A DNA stretch of 43,153 bases from an uncultured Christensenellaceae bacterium (GTDB taxonomy: Bacteria; Bacillota; Clostridia; Christensenellales; CALWSW01), in assembly GCA_944384305.1 (NCBI GenBank), contig CALWSW010000003.1:1-43153 (forward strand), written 5' to 3'. The notes under the pieces were generated by a model, which worked only from the letters and a program-made list of their open reading frames with translations, searched no databases and had not been told where the DNA came from. Below are positions 1,313 through 41,219 of this stretch, piece after piece. Made by a program: the position numbers and the translations under genes. Each line of letters begins with the position of its first letter. Positions within the stretch are counted from its first letter, which is position 1.

Positions 1313-1318
1313 GGGCCC

Positions 1319-2077: not shown

Positions 2078-2223
2078 AAGATCCTCCGCGGCACAGGGCC
2101 GTTTGAACGAAAAGAGCGCGCCAAAACCTGCCGGGAAAGACTTTTTCCGGCAGGCGGCACGTGGGTTGCGGTTGAAAAAACCAAAGAAAAGGCGCAAAAG
2201 AAAACGCCCTTCTCTGCGGTTTT

Positions 2224-2252
2224 ATTTTAGGAAAAAAGCGCCGGGGTGTCAA
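2224..2252 (-). promoter_or_regulatory. SigA-type promoter for glmU-pth-mfd
   Basis: TTGACA (2252-2247), 17 bp, TAAAAT (2229-2224) on minus strand. Confidence 0.7.
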
Positions 2253-2324
2253 GAAAAGGGGGCCGAACAGGCGGGGCGCCGGCACCTGCCCCTGCGCTCT
2301 TGCCCGCGGCAAAAAGCCGGAGGG

Positions 2325-3155: not shown

Positions 3156-3195
3156 GGTAGGGTCATCCTTTCCGAATATTTTAGATGCTTTTAAT

Positions 3196-3224
3196 ATTAT
3201 AGTTCGTTCACCATGTGCACGCAA
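3196..3224 (-). promoter_or_regulatory. SigA-type promoter for purR
   Basis: TTGCGT (3224-3219), 17 bp, TATAAT (3201-3196). Confidence 0.55.
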
Positions 3225-3294
3225 GGACTTTTGTGGATGTTTTTTCGGTTTTACAAGACAATGTTCGGGGTTTTACAGGCGCGCGGGGCGGGGT

Positions 3295-3323
3295 TTGCAT
3301 GAATGGGCGGCACCGATTATAAT
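3295..3323 (+). promoter_or_regulatory. SigA-type promoter for murC operon
   Basis: TTGCAT (3295-3300), 17 bp, TATAAT (3318-3323). Confidence 0.6.
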
Positions 3324-3402
3324 ATGTAGTGTGTAAGGCTGCCCGCGGCGCGGGAACACTCCGCGCCCCGAATACGGCGCCGCCAGATGGGAGCGAAACA
3401 GC

Positions 3403-4815: not shown

Positions 4816-4876
4816 TTTGCAAAAAAGAGCACAGGGCCCGGGGCGGTTTGCCCGCGGCGGGCCAAAGGGAAGTTTT

Positions 4877-5119
4877 ATGCGATTGGATAAATATTTAAAG
4901 GTCTCGCGCATCATTAAGCGCCGCACCGTGGCGAACGAGGCCTGCGACCAGGGCCGCGTGACGCTCAACGGCCGCATGGCCAAGGCCGGCGCCGAGGTGA
5001 AGGTGGGCGATGTGATCGAGCTGAAGCTGGGGGAGCGCACGGTGCGCGCCGAGATCACCAGCGTCACGGAACACGCGCAGAAGGCGGACGCGGCAGAGAT
5101 GTACCGCCTGCTGCCGTGA
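4877..5119 (+). CDS. S4-domain RNA-binding protein (YabO/RqcP/Hsp15-like)
   Basis: MRLDKYLKVSRIIKRRTVANEACDQGRV..NG..AK....VKVGDVI; ATG at 4877. Confidence 0.92.
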   Translation: MRLDKYLKVSRIIKRRTVANEACDQGRVTLNGRMAKAGAEVKVGDVIELKLGERTVRAEITSVTEHAQKADAAEMYRLLP

Positions 5120-6264
5120 AGGCCGGCGCCGTGCTGCTCGCCGCCGGCAAAAGCGAGCGCATGGGCGAGAACAAAATGCTTTTGCCGCTGTGCGGGCGCA
5201 CCGTGCTGGAGCGCAGCTTTTTGACGCTCGCCTCCTGCAAGGGCATTGAGCGCATTGTGTTCGTGGCCTCGCAGGAGACCCGCGCGGCGTGCGAGGCGCT
5301 CGCGGCGGGCTCTGCCATCCCCTGCGCGGTGGTCATGGGGGGCGAAGAGCGGCAGGACTCGGTGCTGAACGGCCTGCGGGTGCTGGGGCGCGCCGAGATC
5401 GCCGTCATCCACGACGGCGCGCGCTGCCTGGCCACCAAAGAGCTCATCGAGGCGTCGATCGAGAGCGCCGGGCGCTACGGCAGCGGCGTGGCGGCCGTTC
5501 CCGCCACCGACACCATCAAGCGCGCCGGCGAAGACCGGGTGGTAGCAGAAACGCTCGACCGCCGGGTGCTCTGGCAGATGCAGACCCCGCAGACCTTCCG
5601 CTACGCCGATATTCTGGAGGCCTACGAAAGCGCCGCCATGCGCGGCGTTTGCGCCACAGACGACGCCGCGCTGCTCGAGGCGGGCGGAAGGGAAGTGCGC
5701 CTGGTGTTGGGCAGCCGTGACAATTTGAAGATCACCACGCCCGAAGATGTGGAGCTTGCGCGCGCATTGCTCGCCAAGCGGGAGGGCGGCCTGCCCATGC
5801 GCACCGGCTGCGGCTACGATGTGCACCAGTTGGCCGCGGGCCGCAAGCTGGTGCTGGGCGGGGTGGAGATCCCCTATGAAAAGGGGCTGTTGGGCCACTC
5901 CGACGCCGACGTGCTGACCCACGCCGTGATGGACGCGCTGCTGGGCGCGGCGGCGCTGGGCGACATTGGCCAGCTCTTCCCCGACACCGACCCCGCCTAC
6001 GAGGGGGCGAACAGCCTGGAGCTGCTTGCCCGGGTGGCGGCGCTGTTAAAGGAAAAGGGGTTTGCGGTGGGAAACGTGGACGCCACCGTTGCGGCCGAGC
6101 GGCCCAAGCTGCTGCCCTACGAACCGGCCATGCGCCAAAACCTTGCGCGGGTGCTGGGCATTTTGCCCGAGCGGGTGAGCGTAAAAGCCACCACCACAGA
6201 GGGCCTGGGCATCGTGGGCGAGGGGCGCGGCATGGCGGCGCAGTGCGTGTGCACCATTTTTTGA
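5116..6264 (+). CDS. ispDF: Bifunctional IspD/IspF (MEP pathway)
   Basis: IspD: LLAAGKSERMG, GGEERQDSV, IHDGAR, QTPQTF, TDDA, NLKITTPED; IspF: GYDVH, GLLGHSDADVLTHA, GDIGQLFPDTD, SVKATTTEGLG. Confidence 0.95.
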   Translation: MKAGAVLLAAGKSERMGENKMLLPLCGRTVLERSFLTLASCKGIERIVFVASQETRAACEALAAGSAIPCAVVMGGEERQDSVLNGLRVLGRAEIAVIHDGARCLATKELIEASIESAGRYGSGVAAVPATDTIKRAGEDRVVAETLDRRVLWQMQTPQTFRYADILEAYESAAMRGVCATDDAALLEAGGREVRLVLGSRDNLKITTPEDVELARALLAKREGGLPMRTGCGYDVHQLAAGRKLVLGGVEIPYEKGLLGHSDADVLTHAVMDALLGAAALGDIGQLFPDTDPAYEGANSLELLARVAALLKEKGFAVGNVDATVAAERPKLLPYEPAMRQNLARVLGILPERVSVKATTTEGLGIVGEGRGMAAQCVCTIF

Positions 6265-6288
6265 CCCCGCCGGCTTGGAGGAGGACGA

Positions 6289-7479
6289 ATGGGAACCTAC
6301 TACGACAAAAAAAGACCGCGTTACAGAAGCGGCAGCGGCCGCCGGGTGCGGCGCATGCGCCGCCGGGGCAGGCCGATCTCCGGCCGGCGGGGCGGGCCGC
6401 TTTTGATCGTCTTTTTGGTGCTGCTCTTTGTGGCCGCCCTGGCGGCGGCGGTCGTGTTTTTGATCGTTCCCATGTTCCAGGGAACGTATGACGGCACCGC
6501 GCCCGAGGTGGTGGCGGCAGAGCCCCTGCCCACCGAGGCCCCGCACACCGTGCAGGTGGTGGAACTGGGCGCGCTGCAGAAGGAGGTGGCGCTTTCGGAC
6601 CGCTACGTGAATTCGCCGTGGGTGGCGGATGGCGCCATGGTGCTGGTGGGCGGCACGGACGACTACGGCAACCCCGCAATGCGCAGCATGTACCTGCTGG
6701 ACCTCGGCGGCGAGGAGAGCGAGCCCACCCGGCTTTCGCTTTCGCCCGAAAACGACGAGTTCTTCCATGTGCGCATGAACGAGCGGTGGATCGTGTACTG
6801 CGACGGCAACAGCGATGAAGGCGGCACGGTGATGGCCTACGAGCGCGCCACGGGCGAGACCCTGCGCGTGAAGGACTACTACGCCGGAGCGCCGGAGCTG
6901 GCGCCCGACGGCGACACGCTTTGCTTTATGGAGCGCACCGGCACCTATATGGACAAGCTTTACGTCTGCGACCTGAACACCTTGGAGTGCGTGGCCGTGG
7001 CGACCTTTGAAGAGAGCGTGTACGGCCAGAGCGAGCCTTCGGCGGCGAACGGCCAGCTGATTTGGGCGGACGGTGGAACAGACGGCGGCAGCGTGATCTG
7101 CTCGCTCGACCTTGAGACGGGCGAACTGGGCAGCTTTGACGCCGGCACCTATGTGCACGACCCCGTGACCAACGGCACGGACTGGGCCTGGATCGACAGC
7201 AACCACGAGGCGGGCGCAAAGCTCTACCTTTCGGTCGCGGGGAGCGAGCCCCAGGTTTTGGCCGAGAACGTGCTGAACTACGGCATTTCGGAAGAGTTCG
7301 TAGCCTACGACAAGGACGGCGCCATTTACGTGTACTTTATAGAAGACGGCTACGAGCAGATCATTACCCCGGCTGCCGAGCGGGGCTGGCTGGCCTGCGT
7401 GGCCAACGGCACGGTGCTGTGGTACGAGACCGGCGTGAGCAGCTCGCGCGATCTGCTGAAATACGCTGTGATCGATTGA
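6289..7479 (+). CDS. Membrane-anchored extracellular protein (basic N-tail, one TM helix, acidic beta-rich, possibly beta-propeller domain)
   Basis: GGAGG SD; Arg-rich N-terminus, hydrophobic LLIVFLVLLFVAALAAAVVFLIV, repeated Y/C-x-x-DL-x-(T/G)G blade-like motifs. Confidence 0.75.
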   Translation: MGTYYDKKRPRYRSGSGRRVRRMRRRGRPISGRRGGPLLIVFLVLLFVAALAAAVVFLIVPMFQGTYDGTAPEVVAAEPLPTEAPHTVQVVELGALQKEVALSDRYVNSPWVADGAMVLVGGTDDYGNPAMRSMYLLDLGGEESEPTRLSLSPENDEFFHVRMNERWIVYCDGNSDEGGTVMAYERATGETLRVKDYYAGAPELAPDGDTLCFMERTGTYMDKLYVCDLNTLECVAVATFEESVYGQSEPSAANGQLIWADGGTDGGSVICSLDLETGELGSFDAGTYVHDPVTNGTDWAWIDSNHEAGAKLYLSVAGSEPQVLAENVLNYGISEEFVAYDKDGAIYVYFIEDGYEQIITPAAERGWLACVANGTVLWYETGVSSSRDLLKYAVID

Positions 7480-7554
7480 AACAATACCGCAGAGAGGGGG
7501 GCGGATGGCCGGCCGCCGCACCCTCTCTGCGCCTTTGCGTTTTAAGGAGTTGAT

Positions 7555-8913
7555 ATGGCGAAGTCTGCATCCTATTACTGCACGGCCTGCGGGTACGAGA
7601 CCGGCAAGTGGCTGGGGCGCTGCCCCTCCTGCGGGGCGTGGAACACCGTTGAAGAGCGCCCTGCCTTGGCTGCGCCCGCCGCCAAAGCAGGGCGGCACGC
7701 CGCGGCGCAGGCCGCGCCGGCGGCCGCCCTGCCGCTCGATCAGATCCGCCCCGACGGCGCGGCCCGCCTGAAGACCGGCCTGGGGGAACTGGACCGCGTG
7801 CTGGGCGGCGGACTGGTAAAGGGCAGCGTGGTGCTGCTGGGCGGCGACCCGGGCATTGGCAAGTCGACGCTTTTGCTGCAGGTGTGCGACGCCCTGGGCG
7901 CGCACGGGCCGGTGCTTTACGCCACGGGCGAAGAGAGCGCCGCGCAGATCCGCCTGCGCGCCCAGCGGCTGGGGATCCAGGGGCGGGGCCTGTTCGTTGC
8001 GGCCGAGACCGACCTGGGGGCCATTTTGGCCGCCGCGCAGGAAAAGGGCTGCCACACGCTCATCGTCGACTCCATTCAAACCGTGTACCGGCCGGAACTG
8101 CCCAATTCCGCCGGTTCGGTAACGCAGATCCGCGAGGCGACCTCGCTTTTGACCCGCGCGGCCAAGCAGACCGGCATGACTGTGGTGATCGTGGGGCACG
8201 TGACCAAAGAGGGTGCGCTGGCCGGGCCGCGGCTGCTGGAGCATTTGGTGGACGCCGTGTTGTATTTTGAAGGCGACCGGTTCGACAGCTTCCGCATCCT
8301 GCGGGCGGTGAAGAACCGCTTTGGCTCCACCAACGAGATCGGGCTGTTCACCATGGGCGAGCGCGGCATGGAGGAAAGCCCCGACCCCAGCGCGCTCTTT
8401 TTGCCCGAGCGCGAGCAGGAGGTGCCGGGGTGCGCGGTGTTTTGTACCATAGAGGGCAGCCGCCCGGTGCTGGCCGAGCTGCAGGCCCTGGCCGCCAAGA
8501 CGGTGTTTGGCAACCCCCGCCGGGCCACCACCGGCCTGGACTACAACCGCCTGACCATGCTCATTGCCGTGCTGGAGCGCAAGCTGGGGGTGAGCTTGGG
8601 GGACCAGGACGTGTACGTGAACATTGCCGGCGGCCTGCGCGTGGAAGAGCGCGCGGCCGATCTGGCCTGTGTGGCGGCGCTGTATTCCTCGGTAAAAAAT
8701 CTGCCCATGCCCAAAAAGACCGCGCTGTTCGGCGAGATCGGCCTGACGGGCGAAGTGCGCGCCGTAGCCGCCGCCGACAAGCGCGCCGCCGAGTGCGCCA
8801 AGCTGGGGTTTGAGCGCATCATTCTGCCCAAGGGCAACCGCGCCGGGATCAGCCTGCCCGTGGAGGTCGTGGGCGTGGCGACGGCGGCAGAGGCGCTGCG
8901 GGCGTTGTTTTAA
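7555..8913 (+). CDS. radA: DNA repair protein RadA/Sms
   Basis: CTACG..WLGRCPSCGAWNT Zn finger, GGDPGIGKSTL, KNRFG motif, Lon-like C-terminal GEIGLTGEVR. Confidence 0.97.
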   Translation: MAKSASYYCTACGYETGKWLGRCPSCGAWNTVEERPALAAPAAKAGRHAAAQAAPAAALPLDQIRPDGAARLKTGLGELDRVLGGGLVKGSVVLLGGDPGIGKSTLLLQVCDALGAHGPVLYATGEESAAQIRLRAQRLGIQGRGLFVAAETDLGAILAAAQEKGCHTLIVDSIQTVYRPELPNSAGSVTQIREATSLLTRAAKQTGMTVVIVGHVTKEGALAGPRLLEHLVDAVLYFEGDRFDSFRILRAVKNRFGSTNEIGLFTMGERGMEESPDPSALFLPEREQEVPGCAVFCTIEGSRPVLAELQALAAKTVFGNPRRATTGLDYNRLTMLIAVLERKLGVSLGDQDVYVNIAGGLRVEERAADLACVAALYSSVKNLPMPKKTALFGEIGLTGEVRAVAAADKRAAECAKLGFERIILPKGNRAGISLPVEVVGVATAAEALRALF

Positions 8914-9157
8914 ACGGATCGTGCCTTTGCGCACAGAAAAAGCGCGGGGGCCGGCGGGCGCTGTTTGCCGGCCGCCCGGCAGCGGGCCTGGGCGCCTTTG
9001 CAGACCAAGCGCAAGGGCGCCCGCGCCCCCATGGCAAAGCAGGCGCCCGCGCTGCCGTGCAGCGCCCCTGTGCGAGGAGGCGAAAGCCCCTCTGGCCTCC
9101 TCCCAGCCCCGCTGCCTGCAAGAACGCAAAAAGGTGGCTGCGGCCTGGATTTTCTTC

Positions 9158-9186
9158 TTGCTTTTTGCCGCGCGCTGCGGTATAAT
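9158..9186 (+). promoter_or_regulatory. tRNA promoter
   Basis: TTGCTT (9158-9163), 17 bp, TATAAT (9181-9186). Confidence 0.65.
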
Positions 9187-9199
9187 ACTTTTTGCGTAT

Positions 9200-9275
9200 G
9201 GGGCATTAGCACAGTTGGTAGCGCGCATCGTTCGCATCGATGAGGTCAGCGGTTCGAATCCGCTATGCTCCACCA
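9200..9275 (+). tRNA. tRNA-Ala(CGC)
   Basis: GGGGCAT acceptor, D-loop TTGGTA, anticodon arm CATCG-TT-CGC-AT-CGATG, T-loop GTTCGAATC, ends ATGCTCC-A-CCA; G3:U70 Ala identity pair. Confidence 0.96.
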
Positions 9276-9355
9276 TTCTCTGCACATGCGAACATTCAGT
9301 TGTGTTGTACATGATAGATGGGATGTTCGTACTGGAGTTTCCGTTCAAGGGAAGC

Positions 9356-9390
9356 AAAAGACCCTCGGCCAAGTAAGCCGAGGGTCTTTT
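9356..9390. terminator. Bidirectional rho-independent terminator
   Basis: Perfect 14-bp inverted repeat AAAAGACCCTCGGC-caagtaa-GCCGAGGGTCTTTT between convergent tRNA and phage late genes. Confidence 0.9.
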
Positions 9391-9395
9391 GTGTA

Positions 9396-9908
9396 TTATT
9401 GGGGTTCCATCCTTTGCCTGATCGCTTTATAGATCTTCCGCTTAACGCGAGCTTGCTGAGTATCTTTCATTCGTTTCACAGCTCTTTTGAGCACAAAATG
9501 TCCTCTGACATATCCGCCCGGTGGACCGACATACATTCCTCCGGCAGGATCGCCACGATTGTATACAAAAGTATGTCCTGCCCAGTGTCCGGGTACGAAG
9601 TGACTTCGAAATCCATACTCAAGGTGCTTCGCGTAATCCAGGTTGTTATAGACGCGGATGAAGTAGCGGTTGCCGCTTTGCCTGGCTGTCTTATCCGACT
9701 TCCAGTTGCGCCGGTAGTCGCCGGTATTGACGATACCGGTCTTCCGGCGGCCGGGCTCGCTCAGATCGGTCGTGCAGATCTTGCGCGCCTGGCCAACGGC
9801 ATACATCCCCTCGCTCACAGCGATTTGGCCAATGATGTTGGGCGCGTCTTCTTGTAGCCGGGTCAATCTTTCGATATAATCCCGCAACTCCTTTGTGTTG
9901 ACCGCCAT
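9396..9908 (-). CDS. HK97 gp10-family neck/tail-completion protein
   Basis: MAVNTKEL...; VNTGDYRRNW, VYNNLDYAKHLEYG, GYVRGHFVLKRA motifs; ATG at 9908. Confidence 0.8.
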   Translation of the reverse strand: MAVNTKELRDYIERLTRLQEDAPNIIGQIAVSEGMYAVGQARKICTTDLSEPGRRKTGIVNTGDYRRNWKSDKTARQSGNRYFIRVYNNLDYAKHLEYGFRSHFVPGHWAGHTFVYNRGDPAGGMYVGPPGGYVRGHFVLKRAVKRMKDTQQARVKRKIYKAIRQRMEPQ

Positions 9909-9910
9909 AT

Positions 9911-10195
9911 TTATTCCTTTGTGGCCCGCGCCGCCGTCACGCCATCGAATGCGCCATTGGCGGCCAAACTCACCACCACGGCGTTGATGAACGCAAGCCC
10001 GGCCGTGGACCAGTTGAGTTCCCCCGCCACCGCCGCAGCGGCGATGAGCACAACGAGCGCCACAATGTAGCTGGTGATGCGGGTCGGGATCCGCTCGATC
10101 CACCCGATGCCCTTGATGAGCTGGGTGATGAGGGTGACGGCCAGCGTGGCGCCGGCGTAGGTGCCCAGGGCGCTCCAGGTGAAGAATTCTTCCAT
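9911..10195 (-). CDS. Holin-like membrane protein
   Basis: 94 aa, about 3 hydrophobic helices, ends LAANGAFD; in lysis module. Confidence 0.75.
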   Translation of the reverse strand: MEEFFTWSALGTYAGATLAVTLITQLIKGIGWIERIPTRITSYIVALVVLIAAAAVAGELNWSTAGLAFINAVVVSLAANGAFDGVTAARATKE

Positions 10196-10210
10196 ATTCG
10201 TTCTCCTTCC

Positions 10211-10525
10211 TTATTTAATCAAATGATCGGCGGCTTGTTCGTTCAAAAAATGATAGTACGCCTCTTTGGCGGTCTCGTAGTCTGCAACAGCCTCTTCCAC
10301 CTCACCATTGGGCTTGCCGCGCTTGATGGCCATAGCGCAGGCGTAGGAGAGCTTGGCGGCGGCCATGGTGACCTCTAAATTGAGGAGCGATTCCTGCTTG
10401 CGCGCGGCGGCGTGGGCCTCGCTGGCCCGGTCGCGCCGCTTTTGCGCCCTTTGGAGATAATACGCTGCGCACGATGCGATGACGCTGGGCAGCAGCCCTA
10501 GCAGAAATGCTGTTACTTCACTCAT
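10211..10525 (-). CDS. Lysis-module membrane protein (holin/antiholin-like)
   Basis: N-terminal TM helix then charged helical domain; between endolysin and holin. Confidence 0.6.
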   Translation of the reverse strand: MSEVTAFLLGLLPSVIASCAAYYLQRAQKRRDRASEAHAAARKQESLLNLEVTMAAAKLSYACAMAIKRGKPNGEVEEAVADYETAKEAYYHFLNEQAADHLIK

Positions 10526-10537
10526 CCCACCACCCCC

Positions 10538-12274
10538 TCAGTACTTCCAGCGGGCCTTCGTGCCCCGCACATCCACATGGACGATATAGCGTGCGCCGTA
10601 GCCCACGCCGCCGGAAACGTTCATTTTAAGGGCGATCTCTTCCAGGTGATCTCGGATTTCGGCGTCGGATACTCCGTCGCATTTGCCGAAGATATCCGCC
10701 GCGCGGCCGAATTTGTGCTGGGAGCCTGATGCCCCGCCCCGCTCTTTGTTCCACTGCTCGCAACGCTGGCCGCCGGCGATGGCGCCATCGCGCGTTGGTT
10801 CCGCACGGCAGGTCACGTACAGCCTCAGCCCAGGGTACTTCTTTTCTGCCTCCCGCCAGATGCGTTCGACCAGGAGGCGCACACCGGCGGTGCTGGCGTT
10901 GGGGTACCCGTCGCAGTACTTGTTGCACTGGCACTCCATGTCGGCCTCAGTCAAGCGCGGGGTGATGATCCCGCTTTTTAAGGCCGCCCAGGTCTTGGGC
11001 CCGGCAATGCCGTCCGCTGCAAGACCCATGGCCGCCTGGAACTGCTTCACCGCCTCTTTGGTCTTGGGGCCGTTCTTGCCGTCGATCTCCCCAACGATCG
11101 CCCCGAAGCCCCAGTCGGTCAGCGCCTGCTGCACGCCCTCGATGGTCTCCGGCCAATCGGTAGGGATGTCGGGGTCTGCAGGCTGCTCAGGCCCGTCGGG
11201 TGGCTCGGTGAGGTAGCTCGCCTTGATCCAGCCGCAGGTGCCGGTGCCGACCAGTGCCCGTTCGCCCTGGCGTTGCAATACCGTCACGATATCGCCATTA
11301 TAGAGGTAGCCGACCTTATCGCTCTTGGTATCAGCTTTGGCTCGTACGATGAGCGCATTACCCTCAGAGACGCCGGAGATCATCTTCTTTTCCTGCACTG
11401 GGTCCTCCTTCCCGTCATTCTTGTCGTTGCCGCCGTCATCCTCCCCAAAGTCATCCGGCAGCTCGACCCGTGGGATGAGGTGCAGCCCGGAGGGGCACTT
11501 GACCTCGGCAGGGGTGGCGTGGTCCATCAGGTAGGCGTAAGCATCGGCCTCGCTGATCTCCGGCCAGCGGGAGAGGATGAGGGCCATCATGCCGGCCACG
11601 GCCGGGGAGGCCATGCTGGTGCCGCTGAGCACGCGGTAGCCGCTCCCGGCGTTTTTGCAGCTGATTACACTGCTGCCGATGACGCAGCAGTCGGTGAGCG
11701 CTCCCCAGCAGGAAGAACTGTCGTTCATTTTCGAATTGCTTTTTAAATTTGCCACCACGATGGGGCTTTCATAGTCCGCCAGGGGCGATTTTTCGTCGGA
11801 ATCATTGCAGGCAGCCACTATAACCGGCACATTGCTGGCTACGAGATCATCTATCTCTGTCATAATGACCGGCCTGTCCGTTTCGCTGAGCGAGATATTG
11901 ACGACCAACCGCTTCTCGGGATGCTCGCTATGCCACGCTTTGATCTGCTGCAGCGCCTGGACAACGCTGCTGTTGCTCCCCGCGTTGGCAGCCCCATCCG
12001 TGACTTTGAGCGGCAATATTTCCGCGTCTGGTGCGATGCCGTACACTGCACCAGCAGCGATGCCCGCCACGTGCGTGCCGTGCCCGTAGGGGTTCACATC
12101 ATTGGTCGGCGTATTCCCGCGGATCGCCCAGCCATCTGTGCGCACGGACAAGTCCTCGTGCGGCCACACCCCTGTGTCGATCACCGCGATCACGACGCCC
12201 TTCCCCGTCACCCCGTGCTGGTGCCACTTTTCCGCCCCCGTAAACTCCCGGGGGATATTTCCACTCAGTGCCAT
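10538..12274 (-). CDS. S8 subtilase + SH3b + peptidoglycan-binding + peptidase M15A endolysin fusion
   Basis: S8 triad VIDTG / HGTHVAG / SGTSMASP; LIVRAKA..KVGYL..GD.V..GWIKASYL (SH3); VQQAL..G..DGKNGPKTKEAVKQFQ..GLAADGIAGPKTW (PG-binding); SQHKFGRAADI..HVDVR (M15 Zn ligands). Confidence 0.9.
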   Translation of the reverse strand: MALSGNIPREFTGAEKWHQHGVTGKGVVIAVIDTGVWPHEDLSVRTDGWAIRGNTPTNDVNPYGHGTHVAGIAAGAVYGIAPDAEILPLKVTDGAANAGSNSSVVQALQQIKAWHSEHPEKRLVVNISLSETDRPVIMTEIDDLVASNVPVIVAACNDSDEKSPLADYESPIVVANLKSNSKMNDSSSCWGALTDCCVIGSSVISCKNAGSGYRVLSGTSMASPAVAGMMALILSRWPEISEADAYAYLMDHATPAEVKCPSGLHLIPRVELPDDFGEDDGGNDKNDGKEDPVQEKKMISGVSEGNALIVRAKADTKSDKVGYLYNGDIVTVLQRQGERALVGTGTCGWIKASYLTEPPDGPEQPADPDIPTDWPETIEGVQQALTDWGFGAIVGEIDGKNGPKTKEAVKQFQAAMGLAADGIAGPKTWAALKSGIITPRLTEADMECQCNKYCDGYPNASTAGVRLLVERIWREAEKKYPGLRLYVTCRAEPTRDGAIAGGQRCEQWNKERGGASGSQHKFGRAADIFGKCDGVSDAEIRDHLEEIALKMNVSGGVGYGARYIVHVDVRGTKARWKY

Positions 12275-12289
12275 TGCCTTTCCTCCGTT

Positions 12290-13534
12290 TCAGTCTCCTG
12301 TGATCGCTCTGATCTCATCGGCCGTCAGGTTGAGCGGGAACTTTTTGCCCTCTCCATCCCGCTCATAGACCTGGTCCCAATAATAGGCGTTTGCCAGTAC
12401 CCGCGCTTTGTGCATGGGACAGATGTAGGTCGCGCGCCTGTTTGGAGTGCCAAAGACCTCGTAGTTGTGTGCGCTGCACCACGCGCAGCCCGAAGCCACG
12501 GGGCAGCAGAAGCACTCGTCTGTTGATTGCGACCGGCGGGTGATGCTTTCCAGCTCCGCGATCCTCTGCCGGTGCTCAGCCGTTGTGCCGATGCCCGTCC
12601 ATATGTCCCCGATCACATACGGCTCGCGAGAGACCGACATGGGCGTGTACCGCAGGCAGGGGTAGATCCTGCCGTCCACGTCGATGGCGAGCATTTTCCC
12701 CGTGCCGCCGCACCAGTTGCCGTTTTCTTCCGGCGGCAGAGGCTGCCCGATCCAATCGTCAAACAGTGTGTTGCGCAGCCCCGGATGTTCCAGCAGGTAA
12801 TCCGCCAGACGAAGCATTTCGCGGTACAGTACACGGGCGTGTTCCGGCTCCCATCCCTGCTCAAATACGCAATTGCAGAAGATCGTGTCCATGCCGAGGT
12901 TCTCATAAAGATTGACGGACGCTTCATACAGGTATTGCAGATTCCCCGGCGCCAGTGTGAACTTGGTGCTGTTTAGGCCGGCAGCTTTGACTGCAGCAGC
13001 GACGCGGTCATAGGTCGGCTGGCCATATAGATCGAATCTGCAGGCGTCGTGGCAGGCCTGGCAGCCATCCACCGTGATGTTGATGTTCAGCCGGCCGGCA
13101 TATTTAAGCAGCAGTTTCTGTACGGCAGGATCAAAGTAGTCCAAACCATTGCTGCAGATCGACATCATATACTGCGTTGCCCAGCGATGCTGTTTTTCGA
13201 GAGACGTCCGGAGAAAATAAGTCATGGTCTCGTCGATCAACCCTGTCTCAAGCAGCGGTTCCCCGCCGATGAAGTCCATGATCAGCCCGTGGGCGTCTTC
13301 GCCGTTGATCCATTGAGAGTGCCGGGCATCTTCTGCAAACAAAAAATCGACGGTTTGCTTTGCCGTCGAAAGACTCATCTTGTCATTGCTTTTGTGCGTC
13401 TCGTAACAATAAGCGCAGCGCATCGAGCAATCGTGCGTGACTACGAAGGTTACGGTTTTTACCCGTTTGTCCCGTCCGTACATGGCCAAATATTTATCCC
13501 CGAAGCCACCCAACGCAACACGGTCACTTTTCAT
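12290..13534 (-). CDS. Radical SAM/SPASM peptide maturase, CXXX-repeat target family
   Basis: CSMRCAYC, FIGGEPLL, SPASM NWCGGTGKML..DGRIYPCLRY..ECFCCPVASGCAWC..ICPMHKAR. Confidence 0.92.
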   Translation of the reverse strand: MKSDRVALGGFGDKYLAMYGRDKRVKTVTFVVTHDCSMRCAYCYETHKSNDKMSLSTAKQTVDFLFAEDARHSQWINGEDAHGLIMDFIGGEPLLETGLIDETMTYFLRTSLEKQHRWATQYMMSICSNGLDYFDPAVQKLLLKYAGRLNINITVDGCQACHDACRFDLYGQPTYDRVAAAVKAAGLNSTKFTLAPGNLQYLYEASVNLYENLGMDTIFCNCVFEQGWEPEHARVLYREMLRLADYLLEHPGLRNTLFDDWIGQPLPPEENGNWCGGTGKMLAIDVDGRIYPCLRYTPMSVSREPYVIGDIWTGIGTTAEHRQRIAELESITRRSQSTDECFCCPVASGCAWCSAHNYEVFGTPNRRATYICPMHKARVLANAYYWDQVYERDGEGKKFPLNLTADEIRAITGD

Positions 13535-13838
13535 ATGCGACGATCACCCCCTTGTAAAAATCCGGTGTGAAGAAAACATTGGGGTCATGTGCCCGATCCG
13601 GTGCTGCACGCTTGACGATCTCGTTGAGCGCAACCTGCCGCTCGGCAAACGCCTGCTGGTACTCGTCTCTGAGCTTGTTGTACACGGGGTCGATGGCAGC
13701 CGGTTCCACGAGACGGGACAGATTCGTGATCAGTACGCGCAAGCCGTCCGTTTCAAAACTGAGTTTTTCCAGGTAGGACATTTGGCTTTCGCCCACCTCG
13801 TATTCGGCTATTTTCTTTCTAAAGCGGTCACAGCTCAT
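13524..13838 (-). CDS. Small accessory protein of CXXX-repeat modification system (putative)
   Basis: 104 aa from ATG 13838, overlaps both neighbours by 11 nt; helical with C-terminal FFTPDFYKGVI. Size and position resemble the small partner of CXXX rSAM clusters. Confidence 0.6.
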   Translation of the reverse strand: MSCDRFRKKIAEYEVGESQMSYLEKLSFETDGLRVLITNLSRLVEPAAIDPVYNKLRDEYQQAFAERQVALNEIVKRAAPDRAHDPNVFFTPDFYKGVIVAYEK

Positions 13839-14385
13839 TGATGATGCGGTCCCCCAAATCCACGATGGTGCTATCCAGCGACTTGACGTAATCTGCGATT
13901 TCTTCGATTTCACTGAGATGGTTGGCTAACGCGTCGTTGGCCTTGCTCGCCAAAAGCAGGGTAAGGTAGGTCCGCCCTGCAATGTACCGTAAGATCGGGC
14001 TGCCTTCGTCCGTCGCGTAATACGTATAAAAGTTCGTGTCGTAGTTTTCCTTCGCGTAAAAATCCTGCAGCTTGCGCTGCGCCATCAGGGAAATAAATCC
14101 GTCAAACTCCGTCTGGTCGAATCTGCTGGCTACGGTCCCGAACATTGTGGTAAACACCGTTTTGAAGTCTGCCGTGAAGTTGCCGGCGATGTTTTTGAGC
14201 GCATTGTACGTGGCAAAGCCAAGGGCAAACACTTCGTGCTCGTCCCGTGCTGCGGCAAAACTTTCGATGGCGGACCGCAGCGGCTCGACAATGGCTTCCC
14301 ACCCTGGTCCTTCCGTGAGGCTCACAAGAAAATCGGCCAGGTGAAACACCTGGTCCGGCATCGAATTGATGAAGATATCGAACAT
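13828..14385 (-). CDS. Hypothetical helical protein within rSAM cassette
   Basis: 185 aa, AGGAGG SD, tightly packed between target and accessory gene. Confidence 0.75.
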   Translation of the reverse strand: MFDIFINSMPDQVFHLADFLVSLTEGPGWEAIVEPLRSAIESFAAARDEHEVFALGFATYNALKNIAGNFTADFKTVFTTMFGTVASRFDQTEFDGFISLMAQRKLQDFYAKENYDTNFYTYYATDEGSPILRYIAGRTYLTLLLASKANDALANHLSEIEEIADYVKSLDSTIVDLGDRIINEL

Positions 14386-14397
14386 GGCACCCTCCTA

Positions 14398-15015
14398 TCA
14401 AGTATCGCGATTGACACCAGAGCACGTGTAGCCGCACGCCAAGGAACAGGCTGTTTGACAGCTGCCTTCGCACGTACCGGTACAGCTGCGGCATCCTTGG
14501 CAGCCGTTCCGGCAAGAGTAGTCACAGGTTCCGGTGCAATCGTATTGGCAGGTGTTTCCGCACCCGCTGCAGCCATAACACCCCGTGGAACACGTGCCAG
14601 AGCACCCTTGGCAGCCGCCGGTACACGTGCCCGTGCAGGATGTGTCGCAGCTGGTGCTGCAAGTTGCGTAACAAGCGCCGGCGCAGTTGCCGTTGCAGTC
14701 GGTCGCAGTTTTGTTGTATAAATTCGTCCTCGCCGATAGTATGGTAACAAACGCCGTCATTTCGTCCAGATCTGTTTTGGAGACCGGGCGCGGCATGCCG
14801 GCATCGGGCACCTGCTCGCTGTTGGCGGCCTGCAGTGGGACTGCGTTCTTAGTATAATGCTCCTCATAGACCGGCTGGCCTTCCGCTGGTGTGTGAGCAT
14901 AATCGTAATCTGTGCCGCCATAAGTCGCCAGCGAATCCTGGTACTGCCGCCGCAGCATTTCCGCTTTTACCGCTGCTTTGAGGTTGATAAAATCATCTGG
15001 ATCGATCCTGGGCAA
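14398..15015 (-). CDS. Cys-rich CXXX-repeat protein (putative rSAM modification target)
   Basis: TTG start with GGAGGTG SD; 106 Cys-free residues then 25 Cys in CX3/CX2 spacing (residues 107-198). Confidence 0.88.
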   Translation of the reverse strand: MPRIDPDDFINLKAAVKAEMLRRQYQDSLATYGGTDYDYAHTPAEGQPVYEEHYTKNAVPLQAANSEQVPDAGMPRPVSKTDLDEMTAFVTILSARTNLYNKTATDCNGNCAGACYATCSTSCDTSCTGTCTGGCQGCSGTCSTGCYGCSGCGNTCQYDCTGTCDYSCRNGCQGCRSCTGTCEGSCQTACSLACGYTCSGVNRDT

Positions 15016-15027
15016 AGTTTCACCTCC

Positions 15028-15336
15028 TCACACCAGCACCAGCCGCCCGGCAAACGCTGCGCCGGCGGTCAGGGTCACGTCTCCTGCAGCGTTGATCTCT
15101 GCGGCCCAGTACACATCGGTGTAGGCGCCCCAGGATGTCGTATAGCTGTTGCTCTCAGTTTTTTGGTACACCGCCAGCACAAACGGCGGGGTCTTGCCGT
15201 GCGTCGCGGCAGGGACGCTCATCGTCACGCCGCTGGCCGATGAAGACCAATTGCTCGTTTCAAAATCCAGCGCATATGCTTTCAATGCCGGGTTGGGGGA
15301 CAGCGTGCTGTTGCCGCCCAGTAAAATGCCACTCAT
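15028..15336 (-). CDS. Small beta-rich tail-fibre-associated protein
   Basis: 102 aa; TGATG-coupled to upstream gene; in distal tail module. Confidence 0.65.
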   Translation of the reverse strand: MSGILLGGNSTLSPNPALKAYALDFETSNWSSSASGVTMSVPAATHGKTPPFVLAVYQKTESNSYTTSWGAYTDVYWAAEINAAGDVTLTAGAAFAGRLVLV

Positions 15337-15959
15337 CAGTCGATCACCTCCCGTGTGGCCGCGTCATAGGTCAGGCTACCACGTAAGATCATGGCTGGCC
15401 GGGTCAGCAATTCGTAGAGCAGCACGGGGTGACTGAGCTGCTCGCCAGACGCTCCTACCGAAATGATATGCACACTGTTGCCGATCACCGATTTCATGGG
15501 GGTGCGCGTACCATAGGGCAGCGCCTGCCCAAAGCGCTGCGCCACGCGCGCTGCGTCGTTTGCAAAGTAGGGGATGGCAGTACCCTCTACGGGCACACGG
15601 CTCTCGTCCACGAAACCGAGCTCGGTGGCGGACAAGAGAAAGCAGCGGCGAACAAGGGTCTTTTGCTCTTTGTGGAATTCGTCCCAGCAGGGGAGGGAGG
15701 CGGGCACGAGATTGACGCGCACCGAGTCCTGCAGGGTGTTTAGGTAGCCGTAGGACAGCCAGCGGTCGGGCGTGCTGCCTTCATACTCTGCGCTGGCGAA
15801 AAAATACGTGCAGGGCGCGAGCAGATCCCGGCGGATGACCAGGGTGTCGGCCTCGTTCGTGCCGTGCGTCCCCCTCGCGATCACCGTAAAATCCTGGAAC
15901 TCACCATTCTCCCTGATGCGGAGCGTCTCTCCAAGGGCCAAGCCGGATAATACCGCCAT
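15336..15959 (-). CDS. DUF6273-like tail/receptor-binding-associated protein
   Basis: ATG 15959 after AAGGAGGTG; LG..LRIRENG..DF.VI, TLVIRRD, RRCFLLSATELG, EGTAIPYF, TRTP..TRPAMIL pattern. Confidence 0.65.
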   Translation of the reverse strand: MAVLSGLALGETLRIRENGEFQDFTVIARGTHGTNEADTLVIRRDLLAPCTYFFASAEYEGSTPDRWLSYGYLNTLQDSVRVNLVPASLPCWDEFHKEQKTLVRRCFLLSATELGFVDESRVPVEGTAIPYFANDAARVAQRFGQALPYGTRTPMKSVIGNSVHIISVGASGEQLSHPVLLYELLTRPAMILRGSLTYDAATREVID

Positions 15960-15972
15960 GTTCGTCACCTCC

Positions 15973-17655
15973 TTAGCTTTGCGTGAGGCCGGTATCCACC
16001 CAGCCGTCGGCAGCGACGTAAATGTACACTTTATACGGCGAGGATGTGCCGACCTCGTACATGTCGCCCTGGGCGGGGCTGGTAATGGCCGCCTGCAGCG
16101 CTTCGAGCGAGCCGTACCGTCCCAGCACAGGCAGCTTTTCCTCTTGACCCAACACGAATTGCGGCTCGAACACCGTGTCGCAGATGAGGGCCAAGCGTGG
16201 GTCGGGGGCCCACCCGGTAAAGAAGCCTTTCTTCCAGGTCGGATTGGATGCGGGCGGCGTGGCAAAGGGGTGAGCGGCCGGCAGCTCCTGAACGTCGACG
16301 GGCTCTCCATTGCGATTGGTAAACGTGGCTGTGAAGCTCTGCCGCGCCGCCATGGCGGGCAAATACGTCAGGCGGTAGAAGCACTCCAAGTTGAGGGCCG
16401 AGACCAAACTGAAGATGCCGCCCGCTCCCAGGGGGGTCAATGCTTCGCCGGGGTCGGGCTCGTCCTCGTCCGGGCCTTCCAAGGGGGGCGGGGGATCGAG
16501 CTCGCCGGCGGCGATTTCACTAAGGGCGTCCGCCGCCACAGGCGCAGCCGGTGCGGCCGATACTGCGCCCCAATACAGAGTGAGGTACAACGAATCCCCC
16601 AGTCCGGAGGTGGCGTACTGGTCGGGGATGGCCCCGGCCGCGGCGGCCGTGGCGTTGGGGATGAGGATGCCGGGAATGACCTCGTCTGGCACCAACTTTG
16701 TGATGTAGCCCGAGCCGGTGTCCACATAGGCGGGCTGGTCCACACCGCTCTCGCCGCTCTCCTGCACCACGCCCAGGGGGACGTGGGCAGAAGTCTCGGC
16801 GGCGTTGTCGTTCCAGGGGCTTTCCTTGTAGAGCAGGTTCGTAGTCTCAAAAGCCAGCGTACCCCAAAGGGCGGTGGGGGTTTTGCCCCACAGGTTTTCG
16901 AGCCCCCTGTAAACGCACCAGCCCTCGACCTCGCTGCCGCCCGAGTGGTAGCCCAGGGCGCCGGACTTGCCGTTGATGTCAGTGCCCGTATGGAGCCCGA
17001 CGCTGCACACCGCCGTCTGGCTGTTCCAGTCGGCGACTTCGACGAGGTACAAGAGAAGGATGGTCGCCCAGGTCATAGCGCCAGAAGGGACCCAGCCGCT
17101 GCCGCGCTCGCCGTTCGGCCATGTCGTGGGCAGGGAGATTGACGTGGACTTGGCCGCGGGCGCGCCGGAAGAACGGCCTTCTTTATCCAGAAAGTAAGCG
17201 CTGACGTATGCTTTTTCCTCTCCCTGTTCGTTCCCTGGCACCGGCCGGTGCAGGGGGGAGACTTCTGCGCCCTCGAAGGGCTGGGCCGAAATCCGGATGG
17301 CGAGCTCTGTTTCGCTGTCGGTCACTTTGTAATAGAAGCGGGGGATCTCGACCATCACATCCCCCACATCGGGGGTCATGGTAAAGCCCAGCTCGCCCTC
17401 GTAAGCCGTAACGACGCCGTTTGTTACGTTGCACCGGCGGATGTCTCGGTAGATCGGCCGTGTGTCGAAGCTCGAACTGCCGGTAGTCGTGCCTGAAGCG
17501 GTGATGCGCTGCGGCGTAAAAGAGAATCCCACCGCGTCATCCGTGCGCGTGAGGGTAGAAGAGGCAGAAGCCTTCGTCCATTTGACGCCATAAATGTACG
17601 GCTGTTCGAGCGGCGACAGGTTGGCGTTCCCGCCGTAGAGGTATCCTGCCATCAT
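15973..17655 (-). CDS. Tail fibre / receptor-binding protein
   Basis: YGVKW..LTRTDDA, GDVMVEIPRFYYK, LLYLVE.ADWNSQ, YRGLENLWG motifs seen in Firmicutes phage fibres; position after baseplate. Confidence 0.7.
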   Translation of the reverse strand: MMAGYLYGGNANLSPLEQPYIYGVKWTKASASSTLTRTDDAVGFSFTPQRITASGTTTGSSSFDTRPIYRDIRRCNVTNGVVTAYEGELGFTMTPDVGDVMVEIPRFYYKVTDSETELAIRISAQPFEGAEVSPLHRPVPGNEQGEEKAYVSAYFLDKEGRSSGAPAAKSTSISLPTTWPNGERGSGWVPSGAMTWATILLLYLVEVADWNSQTAVCSVGLHTGTDINGKSGALGYHSGGSEVEGWCVYRGLENLWGKTPTALWGTLAFETTNLLYKESPWNDNAAETSAHVPLGVVQESGESGVDQPAYVDTGSGYITKLVPDEVIPGILIPNATAAAAGAIPDQYATSGLGDSLYLTLYWGAVSAAPAAPVAADALSEIAAGELDPPPPLEGPDEDEPDPGEALTPLGAGGIFSLVSALNLECFYRLTYLPAMAARQSFTATFTNRNGEPVDVQELPAAHPFATPPASNPTWKKGFFTGWAPDPRLALICDTVFEPQFVLGQEEKLPVLGRYGSLEALQAAITSPAQGDMYEVGTSSPYKVYIYVAADGWVDTGLTQS

Positions 17656-18560
17656 TCTACCTCCGATCCGCCGGCGGAAGTTTCAGCCACCGCCTTGCAG
17701 ATCTCGTATTGCAGGGTAATAGCCACGTCGTGCTGGCGGTCGCTGCGCAGCAGGAAGGAGCCGTCCGACGTCTCAATATAGGCGTGGATGGTCTGCACTT
17801 CAGCGATCGAGCCCATGTCGGCTGCCAGCGCCACCACCATGTCGGCCGCGCCGACGTCGGCATCCGTCACGGTGCGTTCAAACCAGTAGTACCCGTCCTC
17901 CGGTTCCCCTTCTGTCCATCCTTCTGCGGGGATGGTGCAGGTTTTGCAGATGCTGCCGCCGCCAGTCCCCATGTCTTGCAGCGCCTCTGTCAACGAGCCG
18001 CCGTTGTAGGTGACCTGGTCGGTCGTGTGCGTGTGGGTCTTTGGCGCGGCGTACTCGGTCAGGTCGGTTTGTGTCACATAGCTGCCCGCACCGATTTCGA
18101 TGGTAATGGCAGCATCCTCTTGATTGGTCGCCAGCAGCGCGAGTTCGTGCAGGTGGATGCTGTCGCCTGAATCAACCGCCGCTGGCGCTGGCACGGGCAG
18201 AATGTTGTCGCTGTCGCCGCCGTCCAGCCAAGCATAGGCAAACAGGTATTCGCCTTGCTCTTCATCCTGGGCGAAAATGCCGATCTCCCGGACTGCTGCT
18301 GGTGCGGTCAAATGGGCGTTGGTGATCTGCACCGGTATTTTGATATAAGGTGGGGAGACGTTGGCAATATACTCTTTTTCGCCCAGCTCTGCGTCCACGC
18401 CATCCAGCGGGCTGATGAGCGCGCTCAATGCGCCCTGGTCTCTCTGGCAGATGCCGTCGCCCACGGCCGCTTTGGTCAATATGAGCTGCGCGCCGGCAGC
18501 AATGGCAGCGGTCAGGGCCGCTGCGCCCTGATCGGTAATGGTAGATTGATAGCGCGCCAC
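17652..18560 (-). CDS. Baseplate-anchored tail fibre/collar protein (DUF3751-like N-terminus)
   Basis: ITDQGAAAL..LTKAAVGDG..VREIGIFAQD..LFAY; follows XkdU-like gene. Confidence 0.8.
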   Translation of the reverse strand: MARYQSTITDQGAAALTAAIAAGAQLILTKAAVGDGICQRDQGALSALISPLDGVDAELGEKEYIANVSPPYIKIPVQITNAHLTAPAAVREIGIFAQDEEQGEYLFAYAWLDGGDSDNILPVPAPAAVDSGDSIHLHELALLATNQEDAAITIEIGAGSYVTQTDLTEYAAPKTHTHTTDQVTYNGGSLTEALQDMGTGGGSICKTCTIPAEGWTEGEPEDGYYWFERTVTDADVGAADMVVALAADMGSIAEVQTIHAYIETSDGSFLLRSDRQHDVAITLQYEICKAVAETSAGGSEVE

Positions 18561-18561
18561 A

Positions 18562-19092
18562 TTAGCTCCTTTCCCCGGGCTGGTGTTTGTGCGTAACCAT
18601 GCCGGGCGTCAACCCCGACGCACAGATGAGCACCGGCTGCGTGAGTTTTTGGCGAATCGCCGTGCGCAGGATCCACAGCAGATTCGCGGGGATCATCTGC
18701 TGCAGCGTTGCTTGCAGATCCTCCCGCTGCGAATCTCCTTGCAGTTCAACGTCGATTTGGATGCGGTAATCCTCAAGCACTGCGCCTGCTTTCGGGTCGA
18801 TCGACTGCAAGTAGGACAGCAGCGTGCGCCAGGTGTAAGGCAGATGGTTGAGGTATTTGATCAGGATGCGTTCCCGCCGGCCTTCCAATGTGTCCCCAGG
18901 AGCCGCTGTAAGACCCAGGATCGCTTCCCAGCGCTCACAGCCATACTCGGATAAGCTGAGCAAGAAAAAGTCGTCTGGTGCGCTCCGGATGTCCTGGACG
19001 GCTTGCGCGTACTCCGGCTGTTCGGCATCGGCTATTTGGCCGAACTCGAACAGATTTTGTAAAAATCGCGGCCAATATTCTTTAAGCTCCAT
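18562..19092 (-). CDS. Baseplate protein XkdU/YmfQ-like (DUF2313)
   Basis: GCERWEAILGL..DTLEGRRERI, MIPANL; synteny. Confidence 0.85.
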   Translation of the reverse strand: MELKEYWPRFLQNLFEFGQIADAEQPEYAQAVQDIRSAPDDFFLLSLSEYGCERWEAILGLTAAPGDTLEGRRERILIKYLNHLPYTWRTLLSYLQSIDPKAGAVLEDYRIQIDVELQGDSQREDLQATLQQMIPANLLWILRTAIRQKLTQPVLICASGLTPGMVTHKHQPGERS

Positions 19093-39986: not shown

Positions 39987-40129
39987 TTGCCGTTCTCCTC
40001 CTTCGTTTTTTCCTTTTCGCGTTCACGCGCCAGCCACCGCCGAATCATGCCCAGGGTTTCCGCAGCGAGAACGTCCCGCACGTGGGCGGGGATCTGCGTG
40101 ACGTCGATATATATTTGATGTTCGTTCAT
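39983..40129 (-). CDS. Small early protein (48 aa)
   Basis: Manual translation MNEHQIYIDVTQIPAHVRDVLAAETL...; AAGGAG SD; ATGA-coupled to next gene. Confidence 0.55.
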   Translation of the reverse strand: MNEHQIYIDVTQIPAHVRDVLAAETLGMIRRWLAREREKEKTKEENGK

Positions 40130-40167
40130 AAGTTGCTCCTTTCTTTTAGTCCGAAAGCTCTTAACGG

Positions 40168-40188
40168 TAGTAGATTTTAAATCTACTA
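40168..40188. promoter_or_regulatory. Perfect palindromic operator candidate downstream of cro
   Basis: TAGTAGATTT-T-AAATCTACTA. Confidence 0.7.
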
Positions 40189-40189
40189 G

Positions 40190-40393: not shown

Positions 40394-40409
40394 CCTTTTT
40401 CCTCCCTTC

Positions 40410-40518: not shown

Positions 40519-40538
40519 TCAAAAAGGAGGAAGTTACA

Positions 40539-41174: not shown

Positions 41175-41219
41175 ATTTAATAAATAGCCGGTAGTGTCCG
41201 GCGTAGAGGAGGTAACACA

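Follow-up and report, generated by a model that had tools for sequence, protein, structure and literature searches.

What is a radical S-adenosylmethionine (SAM) maturase doing in the tail module of a prophage, in company with a protein built of tandem cysteine repeats? The question is raised by a DNA stretch of 43,153 nt from an uncultured Christensenellaceae bacterium (GCA_944384305.1, contig CALWSW010000003.1, positions 1 to 43,153 of the forward strand; hereafter the window), in which a cassette of four co-oriented minus-strand genes lies between tail-fibre genes and a lysin. In order of reading, the cassette encodes a 205-aa Cys-repeat target with a TTG start (14398..15015, -), an acidic, soluble 185-aa protein of no known family in a variable slot (13828..14385, -), a conserved 104-aa accessory, counted from its ATG (13524..13838, -), and a 414-aa radical SAM/SPASM maturase of the TIGR04115 family (12290..13534, -). 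A GTG at 13913 would lengthen the accessory open reading frame (ORF) to 129 aa. An earlier reading made from the letters alone (the sequence-only reading) had given these four genes exactly the lengths, shared orientation and coordinates found here, and held that the cassette either crosslinks a virion protein or makes a ribosomally made and post-translationally modified peptide (RiPP) that is released by lysis. Here we report a computational follow-up, in which the enzyme family turns out, to judge by its gene neighbourhoods, to live mainly in phage tail modules. The whole picture that we draw, a late-expressed maturation system stapling a tail-associated structural protein with thioethers, is plausible but tentative; the thioether chemistry alone is probable.

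Under the NCBIfam model TIGR04115 (rSAM_Cxxx_rpt, an equivalog_domain model; cut-off 350 bits) the enzyme scored 398 bits (E 4.7e-119) in an alignment that spans profile positions 2-359 of 359, and the same match was recovered in a profile search of the window's genome; the assignment given in the sequence-only reading was therefore correct. The SPASM domain was likewise borne out by a profile, TIGR04085 (31.1 bits against a cut-off of 27, enzyme residues 275-372). From Pfam, Fer4_12 passed its cut-off (26.6 against 22), and SPASM (17.9 against 21.5) and Radical_SAM (19 against 29.5) stayed under theirs. In an alignment of 26 family members the cysteines of the CX3CX2C motif (C36, C40 and C43) are invariant, as are C275, C293, C341, C344, C350, C353 and C372 of the SPASM region. 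The PHROG family phrog_1802 also matches the enzyme (E 6.6e-56). The family is a catalogued but uncharacterised one. Its next-best models are those of thioether formers, all of them reached far under the cut-off: the PapB model NF047865 was second-best (148.4 bits against 340), followed by the SCIFF maturase TIGR03974 (87 bits against 425) and a QhpD-type model (81 bits against 453, E 5.8e-23). The closest solved structure by sequence is CteB (5wgg, E 3.7e-15).

It is from these relatives, CteB, PapB and QhpD, that we infer the chemistry, and by analogy with them the cassette enzyme would form bonds from Cys to carbon. As described in PMC11002830, PapB forms Cys-Asp S-C-beta links, which in freyrasin (the PapB/PapA product) make six C-x3-D rings; CteB makes the Cys-Thr S-C-gamma links of thermocellin from SCIFF; and QhpD makes Cys-Asp and Cys-Glu links in a protein that becomes a structural subunit, not a secreted peptide.

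The putative substrate is the 205-aa protein. It holds 25 Cys in residues 107-199, and of the 24 spacings between them 19 are of 4 residues and 5 of 3 residues, which gives C-x3/C-x2 repeats within a Gly/Ser/Thr/Cys-rich stretch. Tandem Cys at every fourth residue, encoded beside a maturase, can thus be read directly from the translation. Profile models recognised the repeats poorly: the 18-position repeat model TIGR04114 gave 13.3 bits (E 0.51) at 14434-14487, under its cut-off of 20, and TIGR04117 reached only E 0.05. The target was matched by phrog_6085 (E 3.2e-7). An AlphaFold2 (AF2) model based on a 38-row alignment had predicted local distance difference test (pLDDT) values that exceed 90 over residues 1-100 and drop under 50 in the repeats; the predicted N-terminal domain consists of three main helices (6-22, 51-68 and 80-95). 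A fold search of BFVD with this model returned only uncharacterised homologues from gut phages. A search for longer proteins containing the N-terminal domain found none, which is weak evidence.

Whether the pairing of enzyme and repeat protein belongs to phages was examined in a survey of relatives. Among 8000 candidates scored, 3351 proteins belonged to the enzyme family at E <= 1e-30, and a profile-guided scan placed relatives in at least 511 IMG/VR stretches and 207 stretches of species-representative genomes. The best 80 of the former and the best 80 of the latter were fetched (160 loci in total; loci are cited below by L numbers); the viral label of a locus is the IMG/VR assignment. ORFs were called with a longest-ORF heuristic, which errs in high-GC loci, and many loci are short. 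The 3157 called proteins were clustered and the cluster representatives annotated with PHROGs. A same-strand Cys-repeat ORF (at least 6 consecutive C-x(2-4) units) occurred in 153 of the 160 loci. The genes come in two orders that are circular permutations of one another, target-X-accessory-maturase, as in the window, and accessory-maturase-target-X.

The neighbours of the cassette in these loci are for the most part tail genes. The commonest are baseplate J (phrog_6), phrog_521, the LysM family phrog_380, baseplate W, phrog_400, phrog_52, phrog_76, phrog_48, tape measure proteins and phrog_5302. The immediate upstream neighbour was in 66 of 141 loci a member of a cluster without PHROG match (cluster 4), whose HMM (hidden Markov model) matches residues 24-138 of the open frame 17655-18608, which holds the fibre gene of the window (E 1.7e-10), and which we take as a tail-fibre N-terminal domain; 7 further loci stop at the contig edge. 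Tail or baseplate markers were present within the fetched flank in 65 of the 80 viral and 44 of the 80 genome loci, and where at least 7 kb of upstream sequence was available the counts were 52 of 58 and 36 of 55, respectively. When the maturases were clustered at 90% identity, 49 of 83 clusters had a marker in at least one member. Ten large upstream proteins were picked by hand from unmarked genome loci: six matched tail-fibre, minor-tail or virion PHROGs, two matched phage families of unknown function and two matched none. The link to tail fibres spans tail modules of both myovirus and siphovirus type. In the uncultured phage contig MT835573.1 (L001) the same four-gene order has fibre-like genes on both sides, and loci of the L012 type likewise have fibre or tail genes on both sides of the cassette. 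The homologues are thus overwhelmingly phage-borne and tail-linked, and the sequence-only reading, which would have fallen had they been mostly non-phage, stands in this respect. Of the gene order whose conservation it had proposed to check, from fibre through target and maturase to lysin, the fibre link was found and the lysin link was not: tblastn detected a relative of the lysin in 1 of 161 loci only (L096), so the lysin is not a conserved neighbour of the cassette.

Across the loci the target behaves in a way that bears on what it is for. The family of its N-terminal domain was detected in 121 fetched loci. In 86 distinct targets the number of Cys runs from 2, in a truncated protein (L053), through a median of 31 up to 145 in 650 aa (L162); 72% of the Cys spacings are of 4 residues and 25% of 3 residues, and the positions in between are mostly Ser, Thr and Gly. 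Greater length comes from a longer array alone, with no extra domain gained; the array reaches about 540 residues, and repeat number varies 7-fold. The extreme case, with the 145 Cys, is L162:5177-7129. Three loci show a reversed domain order, with the array first and the helical domain at the C-terminus (L151:11202-12077, L153:11739-12704 and L156:7014-8003). There are also two-gene forms (e.g. L035:8781-9578), in which one gene encodes a short N-domain protein with 19 Cys and the next a 265-aa protein that has 64 Cys but lacks the N-domain. A folded domain that may stand at either end of an array, and an array whose repeat number varies several-fold, would be typical of structural repeat proteins and unlike RiPP cores, as far as sequences and models allow this to be judged.

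This comparison touches the first rival explanation, namely that the product is a very large ranthipeptide or sactipeptide RiPP set free at lysis, with the domain of about 100 aa as a leader or follower bound by the accessory, and serving as a bacteriocin, signal or adhesive. The enzyme family is named for peptide maturation, leaders and cores are usually laid out in this way, with a conserved domain free of Cys joined to a hypervariable Cys core, and a product encoded near lysis genes would need no exporter for its release. In the window, moreover, the protein of the next gene begins with an S8 subtilase domain, which has a weak likeness to QhpE, a leader protease (E 1.4e-9, 37.7 bits against 165). 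We tried the S8 protease as a conserved leader peptidase and rejected it, since S8 occurs only in the window and in L096 among the 161 loci; the cassette has no conserved partner gene for proteolysis, export or immunity. With up to 540 residues and 145 Cys the arrays are far larger than known RiPP cores, the conserved domain is confidently predicted to fold alone, and many phages hold the cassette between fibre genes, not beside lysis genes. A killing product made only at the death of the host, from genes without a promoter of their own, would also bring no obvious benefit to a lysogen. We regard a released RiPP as unlikely, and of the two outcomes put forward by the sequence-only reading the evidence leans to a crosslinked virion protein.

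The genes of the cassette are closely packed. The gap from the upstream 102-aa gene to the target is 12 nt, that from the target to the 185-aa gene 12 nt and that from the maturase to the lysin 15 nt; the 185-aa and 104-aa genes overlap by 11 nt, as do the 104-aa and maturase genes. Shine-Dalgarno-like purine runs precede the starts of the target, the 185-aa protein, the maturase and the lysin, with GGAGGTG before the TTG of the target. In a consensus scan of 9000-19000, which may not fit this host, 2 promoter-like sites were found against 3.8 +/- 2.3 in shuffled sequence and 11 terminator-like sites against 9.7 +/- 3.6, an excess in neither case, and no pair of sites brackets the cassette as the own promoter and terminator of a moron would. 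The gaps of 12 to 15 nt or overlaps, the lack of signals of its own and the place between the last tail-fibre gene and the endolysin, all asserted in the sequence-only reading, were thus recovered from the coordinates, the site counts and the flanking genes. None of the cassette proteins has a membrane segment. This operon layout implies that the cassette is probably co-expressed with the late tail genes, and it is on this structure that late expression in our proposal is inferred.

The same position invites another rival, in which the cassette is selfish or accessory cargo riding the late operon, for instance in anti-defence, superinfection exclusion or modification of the host surface. Its distribution is sporadic: the enzyme scored above its cut-off in 2 of 399 sampled genomes of the host's class, the window's own included, which fits a mobile trait. 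The slot protein evolves fast, and the surroundings are mosaic. Contigs from four DNA runs gave evidence of presence and variation. Those of run X5 depart from the window at 44-71 letters per contig where they cover the lysin and at 0-5 letters where they cover the cassette and the fibre end (13118-13588 and 14212-15930), a contrast that suggests a recombination boundary near the junction of lysin and maturase, at about 11800-12300 of the window. A free cargo would not be expected to keep its link to tail fibres over myovirus-type and siphovirus-type modules and over two gene orders, as this cassette does, and the consensus scan detected no promoter for expression in the lysogen. Cargo is in our estimate very unlikely.

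The third gene supplies a further tie to the enzyme. The accessory family was detected with a local iterative HMM in 108 fetched loci, and the accessory domain is fused N-terminally to the maturase in L071, L028, L036 and the database protein P0073; these fusions argue that accessory and enzyme act as one unit. The TIGR04115 match begins at residue 26 of the enzyme, and the other maturase models align only from profile positions 70-110, which indicates that the enzyme is without an N-terminal domain carried by many of its relatives. The accessory may replace that missing domain. The AF2 model of the accessory is confident (mean pLDDT 92.9): a beta-strand leads into a long helical hairpin, and a beta-hairpin follows. 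The PqqD-like RiPP recognition element is a winged helix with a three-stranded sheet followed by three helices; the accessory has no Pfam match to PqqD, and its predicted order is strand, two long helices and beta-hairpin. No NCBIfam, Pfam or PHROG match was found for the accessory. The catalogued accessory model TIGR04116 (90 positions, cut-off 50) found nothing at E <= 10, whether in the genome of the window or in the scan of its proteins, and was weakly matched by 3 of 45 aligned accessory relatives (best E 0.0015). A complex prediction for target residues 1-110 with the accessory scored 0.12 and 0.03 against a mark of 0.32 and is used neither way.

The second gene fared differently. The sequence-only reading had counted the 185-aa gene as a member of the cassette, and this could not be maintained. 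The protein has no hydrophobic segment and no Pfam, NCBIfam or PHROG match, and among 1.84 billion cluster representatives it has two close relatives (P0121, 99%, and P0122, 76%) and one remote one (P0123, 25%). Elsewhere the gene after the target falls into several mutually dissimilar clusters, among them proteins of about 166-207 aa and a second Cys-rich protein of about 265 aa, and of 100 cases examined there were 16 in which target and accessory are adjacent, with the accessory next after the target. As the proteins at this place are unrelated or absent in other loci, the position is, on the sequences compared, a variable, dispensable and fast-evolving slot, and its gene does not belong to the conserved set. 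The best Atlas score, 0.78 for DUF7217, lies under the meaningful level, and the idea that the slot holds one divergent family failed at the sequence level, the best hhalign probability against nine position-equivalent clusters being 5.4%.

A variable slot behind fibre genes brings in the remaining rival. Dedicated assembly chaperones are commonly encoded after tail-fibre genes, and the cassette follows fibre genes; the Cys-repeat protein could then be a discarded assembly factor, or a metal or Fe-S helper for fibre folding, with the radical SAM enzyme modifying either the helper or the fibre. The slot of about 185 aa looks like the position of a fibre-specific chaperone, and dense Cys arrays could bind metals. 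The joint occurrence of maturase and Cys-repeat ORF in nearly all the fetched loci is a better fit to a substrate, and the variation in repeat number would be unusual for a chaperone. We judge an assembly helper quite unlikely.

Stapling of a tail-associated protein, the explanation that we prefer, could work as follows. The maturase and the accessory would jointly modify the 205-aa protein in its Cys-repeat region, the accessory supplying the docking or recognition that other SPASM maturases hold as an N-terminal domain. Many intramolecular thioether bridges from Cys to carbon, one per C-x3/C-x2 unit, would be formed. Acidic residues are rare in the repeats, and the candidate acceptors in the putative crosslinks are therefore Ser, Thr or Gly carbons. 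A floppy stretch would in this way be stapled covalently into a rod or knot on which reductants and proteases have little effect. The helical domain of about 100 aa would serve as a handle that is recognised during maturation, attaches the product to the tail, or both; attachment would probably be through the tail-fibre protein encoded just upstream. For the 185-aa protein a role as chaperone or specificity factor is a guess. We speculate that the thioethers would do the work of disulfides where disulfides fail, in a reducing habitat and in the cytoplasm. Incorporation into the virion is proposed on the grounds of synteny and of the behaviour of repeat length.

Several observations weigh against this proposal. 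AF2 yields no confident structure for the repeats. Neither the target nor the accessory model was matched to a known virion structure: Foldseek searches of the PDB with both returned nothing at E <= 0.001, and VIA-wide comparisons gave best Z values of 6.5 for the target (Lon N-domain; 5.0 for TssK of the type VI secretion system) and 7.3 for the accessory (generic helical hairpins), in a range common for helical models. Asp and Glu acceptors are few in the repeats, unlike in the substrates of PapB and QhpD. The long conserved domain beside a Cys-rich core also resembles a RiPP leader. The tail markers were absent from 36 of the 80 genome and 15 of the 80 viral loci, many of which are short contigs with crude ORF calls. 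In a collection of 50,697 phage records the target domain was found in no cultured phage and in one uncultured contig only. Finally, the junction of tail-fibre and lysis genes is a classic site of phage cargo genes.

How much of this was known before? The core of the cassette is already catalogued, by NCBIfam as the maturase TIGR04115, target TIGR04114 and accessory TIGR04116 and by PHROGs as phrog_1802 for the enzyme and phrog_6085 for the target, and the claim of the sequence-only reading that the system is undescribed was overstated. Of the three NCBIfam models that it had put forward for a search, that of the maturase applied, and those of the target, which stays under its cut-off, and of the accessory did not. 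The CXXX-repeat system of NCBIfam/TIGRFAMs, defined by comparative genomics only, shares with the cassette the TIGR04115 enzyme, a neighbour with C-x3 repeats and an accessory of about 100 aa, and databases name relatives of the enzyme 'radical SAM peptide maturase, CXXX-repeat target family'. Unlike those models, the cassette combines a target under the TIGR04114 cut-off and an accessory without TIGR04116 with a folded domain of 100 aa, an extra variable gene and a phage tail setting. What is new here is the phage tail-module context of the CXXX-repeat set. In the literature searched, which lay outside subscription journals and supplements, the phage-tail link, the folded target domain and the accessory-enzyme fusions are not described.

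Among characterised systems, PapB and CteB share the radical SAM and SPASM architecture with the cassette enzyme, and their products, in the account cited above, carry repeated thioethers from Cys to carbon. The cassette differs in scoring far under the cut-offs of their models, in its putative substrates, proteins in which 19-145 Cys stand among few acidic acceptors, and in its tail-gene context. The QhpD/QhpC/QhpE set of quinohemoprotein amine dehydrogenase offers the likeness of a radical SAM/SPASM enzyme that acts on a protein, and a QhpE-like S8 domain adjoins the cassette in the window. QhpC carries only a few links and lacks a repeat array, the S8 domain beside the cassette is not a conserved neighbour, and the QhpD and QhpE scores given above are far from their cut-offs. 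A covalently hardened part of the virion is also known from the capsid 'chainmail' of HK97, in which isopeptide bonds between capsid subunits form autocatalytically. The cassette would share the idea of hardening, with a dedicated radical enzyme and a tail-associated repeat protein in place of autocatalysis between capsid subunits.

The cassette of the window sits in a complete-looking temperate myovirus prophage that occupies 9.4-40 kb on the minus strand, as judged by PHROG matches. These include small and large terminase, portal, a Mu-F-like minor head protein, scaffold and major head protein, then tail sheath, tape measure, a LysM protein and baseplate W-like and J-like proteins upstream of the cassette, and a replication initiator and CI-like repressor near 38-41 kb. 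The tail-fibre protein is encoded at 17652..18560 (-; phrog_7037, E 9.4e-25). Between it and the cassette (15028..17655, -) lie genes for a 560-aa tail protein (15973-17655, -; phrog_5302, E 2.2e-34), a 206-aa tail-region protein (15336-15956, -; phrog_10993, E 3.8e-5) and a 102-aa virion structural protein (15028-15336, -; phrog_10468, E 5.5e-8). Single-protein scans of IMG/VR with the 560-aa protein and with the lysin found no match, and that with the maturase led to one distant locus (L002, 28% identity).

Downstream of the cassette lies the 578-aa lysin (10538..12274, -), which matches PHROG endolysin and protease families. The sequence-only reading had called it an endolysin; a lytic gene is indeed there, and Pfam refines it to a single fusion of S8 subtilase, SH3_3, PG_binding_1 and Peptidase_M15 domains. 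Such a four-part lysin fusion is unusual. The Asp, His and Ser motifs seen by eye in its translation are presumably the catalytic ones of a subtilase. Two holin-like genes with hydrophobic segments follow, and after them, at the extreme end of the prophage, a homologue of phrog_5, 'tail completion or Neck1' (9396-10103, -), an odd location for a connector gene. A terminator-like hairpin with a 16-bp stem (9354-9392, +) adjoins this gene and the tRNA-Ala (9200-9275) that the prophage end abuts. At the other side, the GC content of 40001-43153 falls to 0.43-0.46, where the prophage has 0.55-0.65 and the host flank (1-9000) 0.64-0.70; this part encodes the CI-like repressor and a 468-aa phrog_1847 protein of unknown function.

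Some observations on related loci may be added. A reverse transcriptase (phrog_1423) stands 3-8 genes downstream of the maturase in, for example, L012, L035, L053, L054 and L061, and follows the cassette in 35 of the 80 viral and 6 of the 80 genome loci, often after phrog_16164, phrog_17147 or phrog_5302 tail genes; it presumably belongs to a diversity-generating retroelement. The window has the phrog_5302 homologue and no reverse transcriptase. Its genome holds a second radical SAM/SPASM gene (G000:C76:1841-2887, L004), a 506-aa open frame that reaches 107 bits with TIGR04115, under the cut-off. In another genome of the host's class, G129:C8:12847-13917 gives 490 bits inside a 731-aa open frame, perhaps that of a larger fusion. 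Distant radical SAM/SPASM proteins are encoded by jumbo phages that infect Salmonella and Erwinia (e.g. NC_027402.1 (SPN3US) and NC_031007.1) and by Campylobacter phages; among the matches listed, those of Salmonella, Erwinia, Escherichia and Proteus phages are 23-25% identical to the enzyme. Contigs of L157, L130, L144, L139, L153 and L162 were binned to Methanobrevibacter, Treponemataceae, Slackia, Raoultibacter, Brevibacillus and a 'Tenericutes' metagenome-assembled genome, which reflects either a wide phage host range or mis-binned contigs. The cassette also occurs in records of isolates, among them Neglectibacter timonensis SN17, Anaerobacterium chartisolvens DSM 27016, Vallitalea maricola AN17-2, Desnuesiella massiliensis mt10 and Eubacterium pyruvativorans i6, and with cultured isolates carrying it the question is directly testable.

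Work on radical SAM/SPASM maturases has been devoted almost wholly to the small peptide natural products that they make. If the product is in the virion, enzyme-installed thioether stapling would join the few known ways in which virus particles are covalently hardened. The occurrence of such phages with anaerobes would then have a possible reason, in an enzyme that is oxygen-labile and in disulfides that are useless in a reducing habitat, and protein engineers would gain a natural poly-stapling system for long repeat proteins. The broadest form of the idea is doubtful but deserves mention: many phages of anaerobic gut bacteria may build a tail part from a protein stapled by a phage-encoded radical SAM enzyme, with dozens to more than 100 redox-proof thioethers taking the place of disulfides. 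If so, radical chemistry of the RiPP type would here for the first time serve to make a viral structural component, one in which repeat number sets the length of the part.

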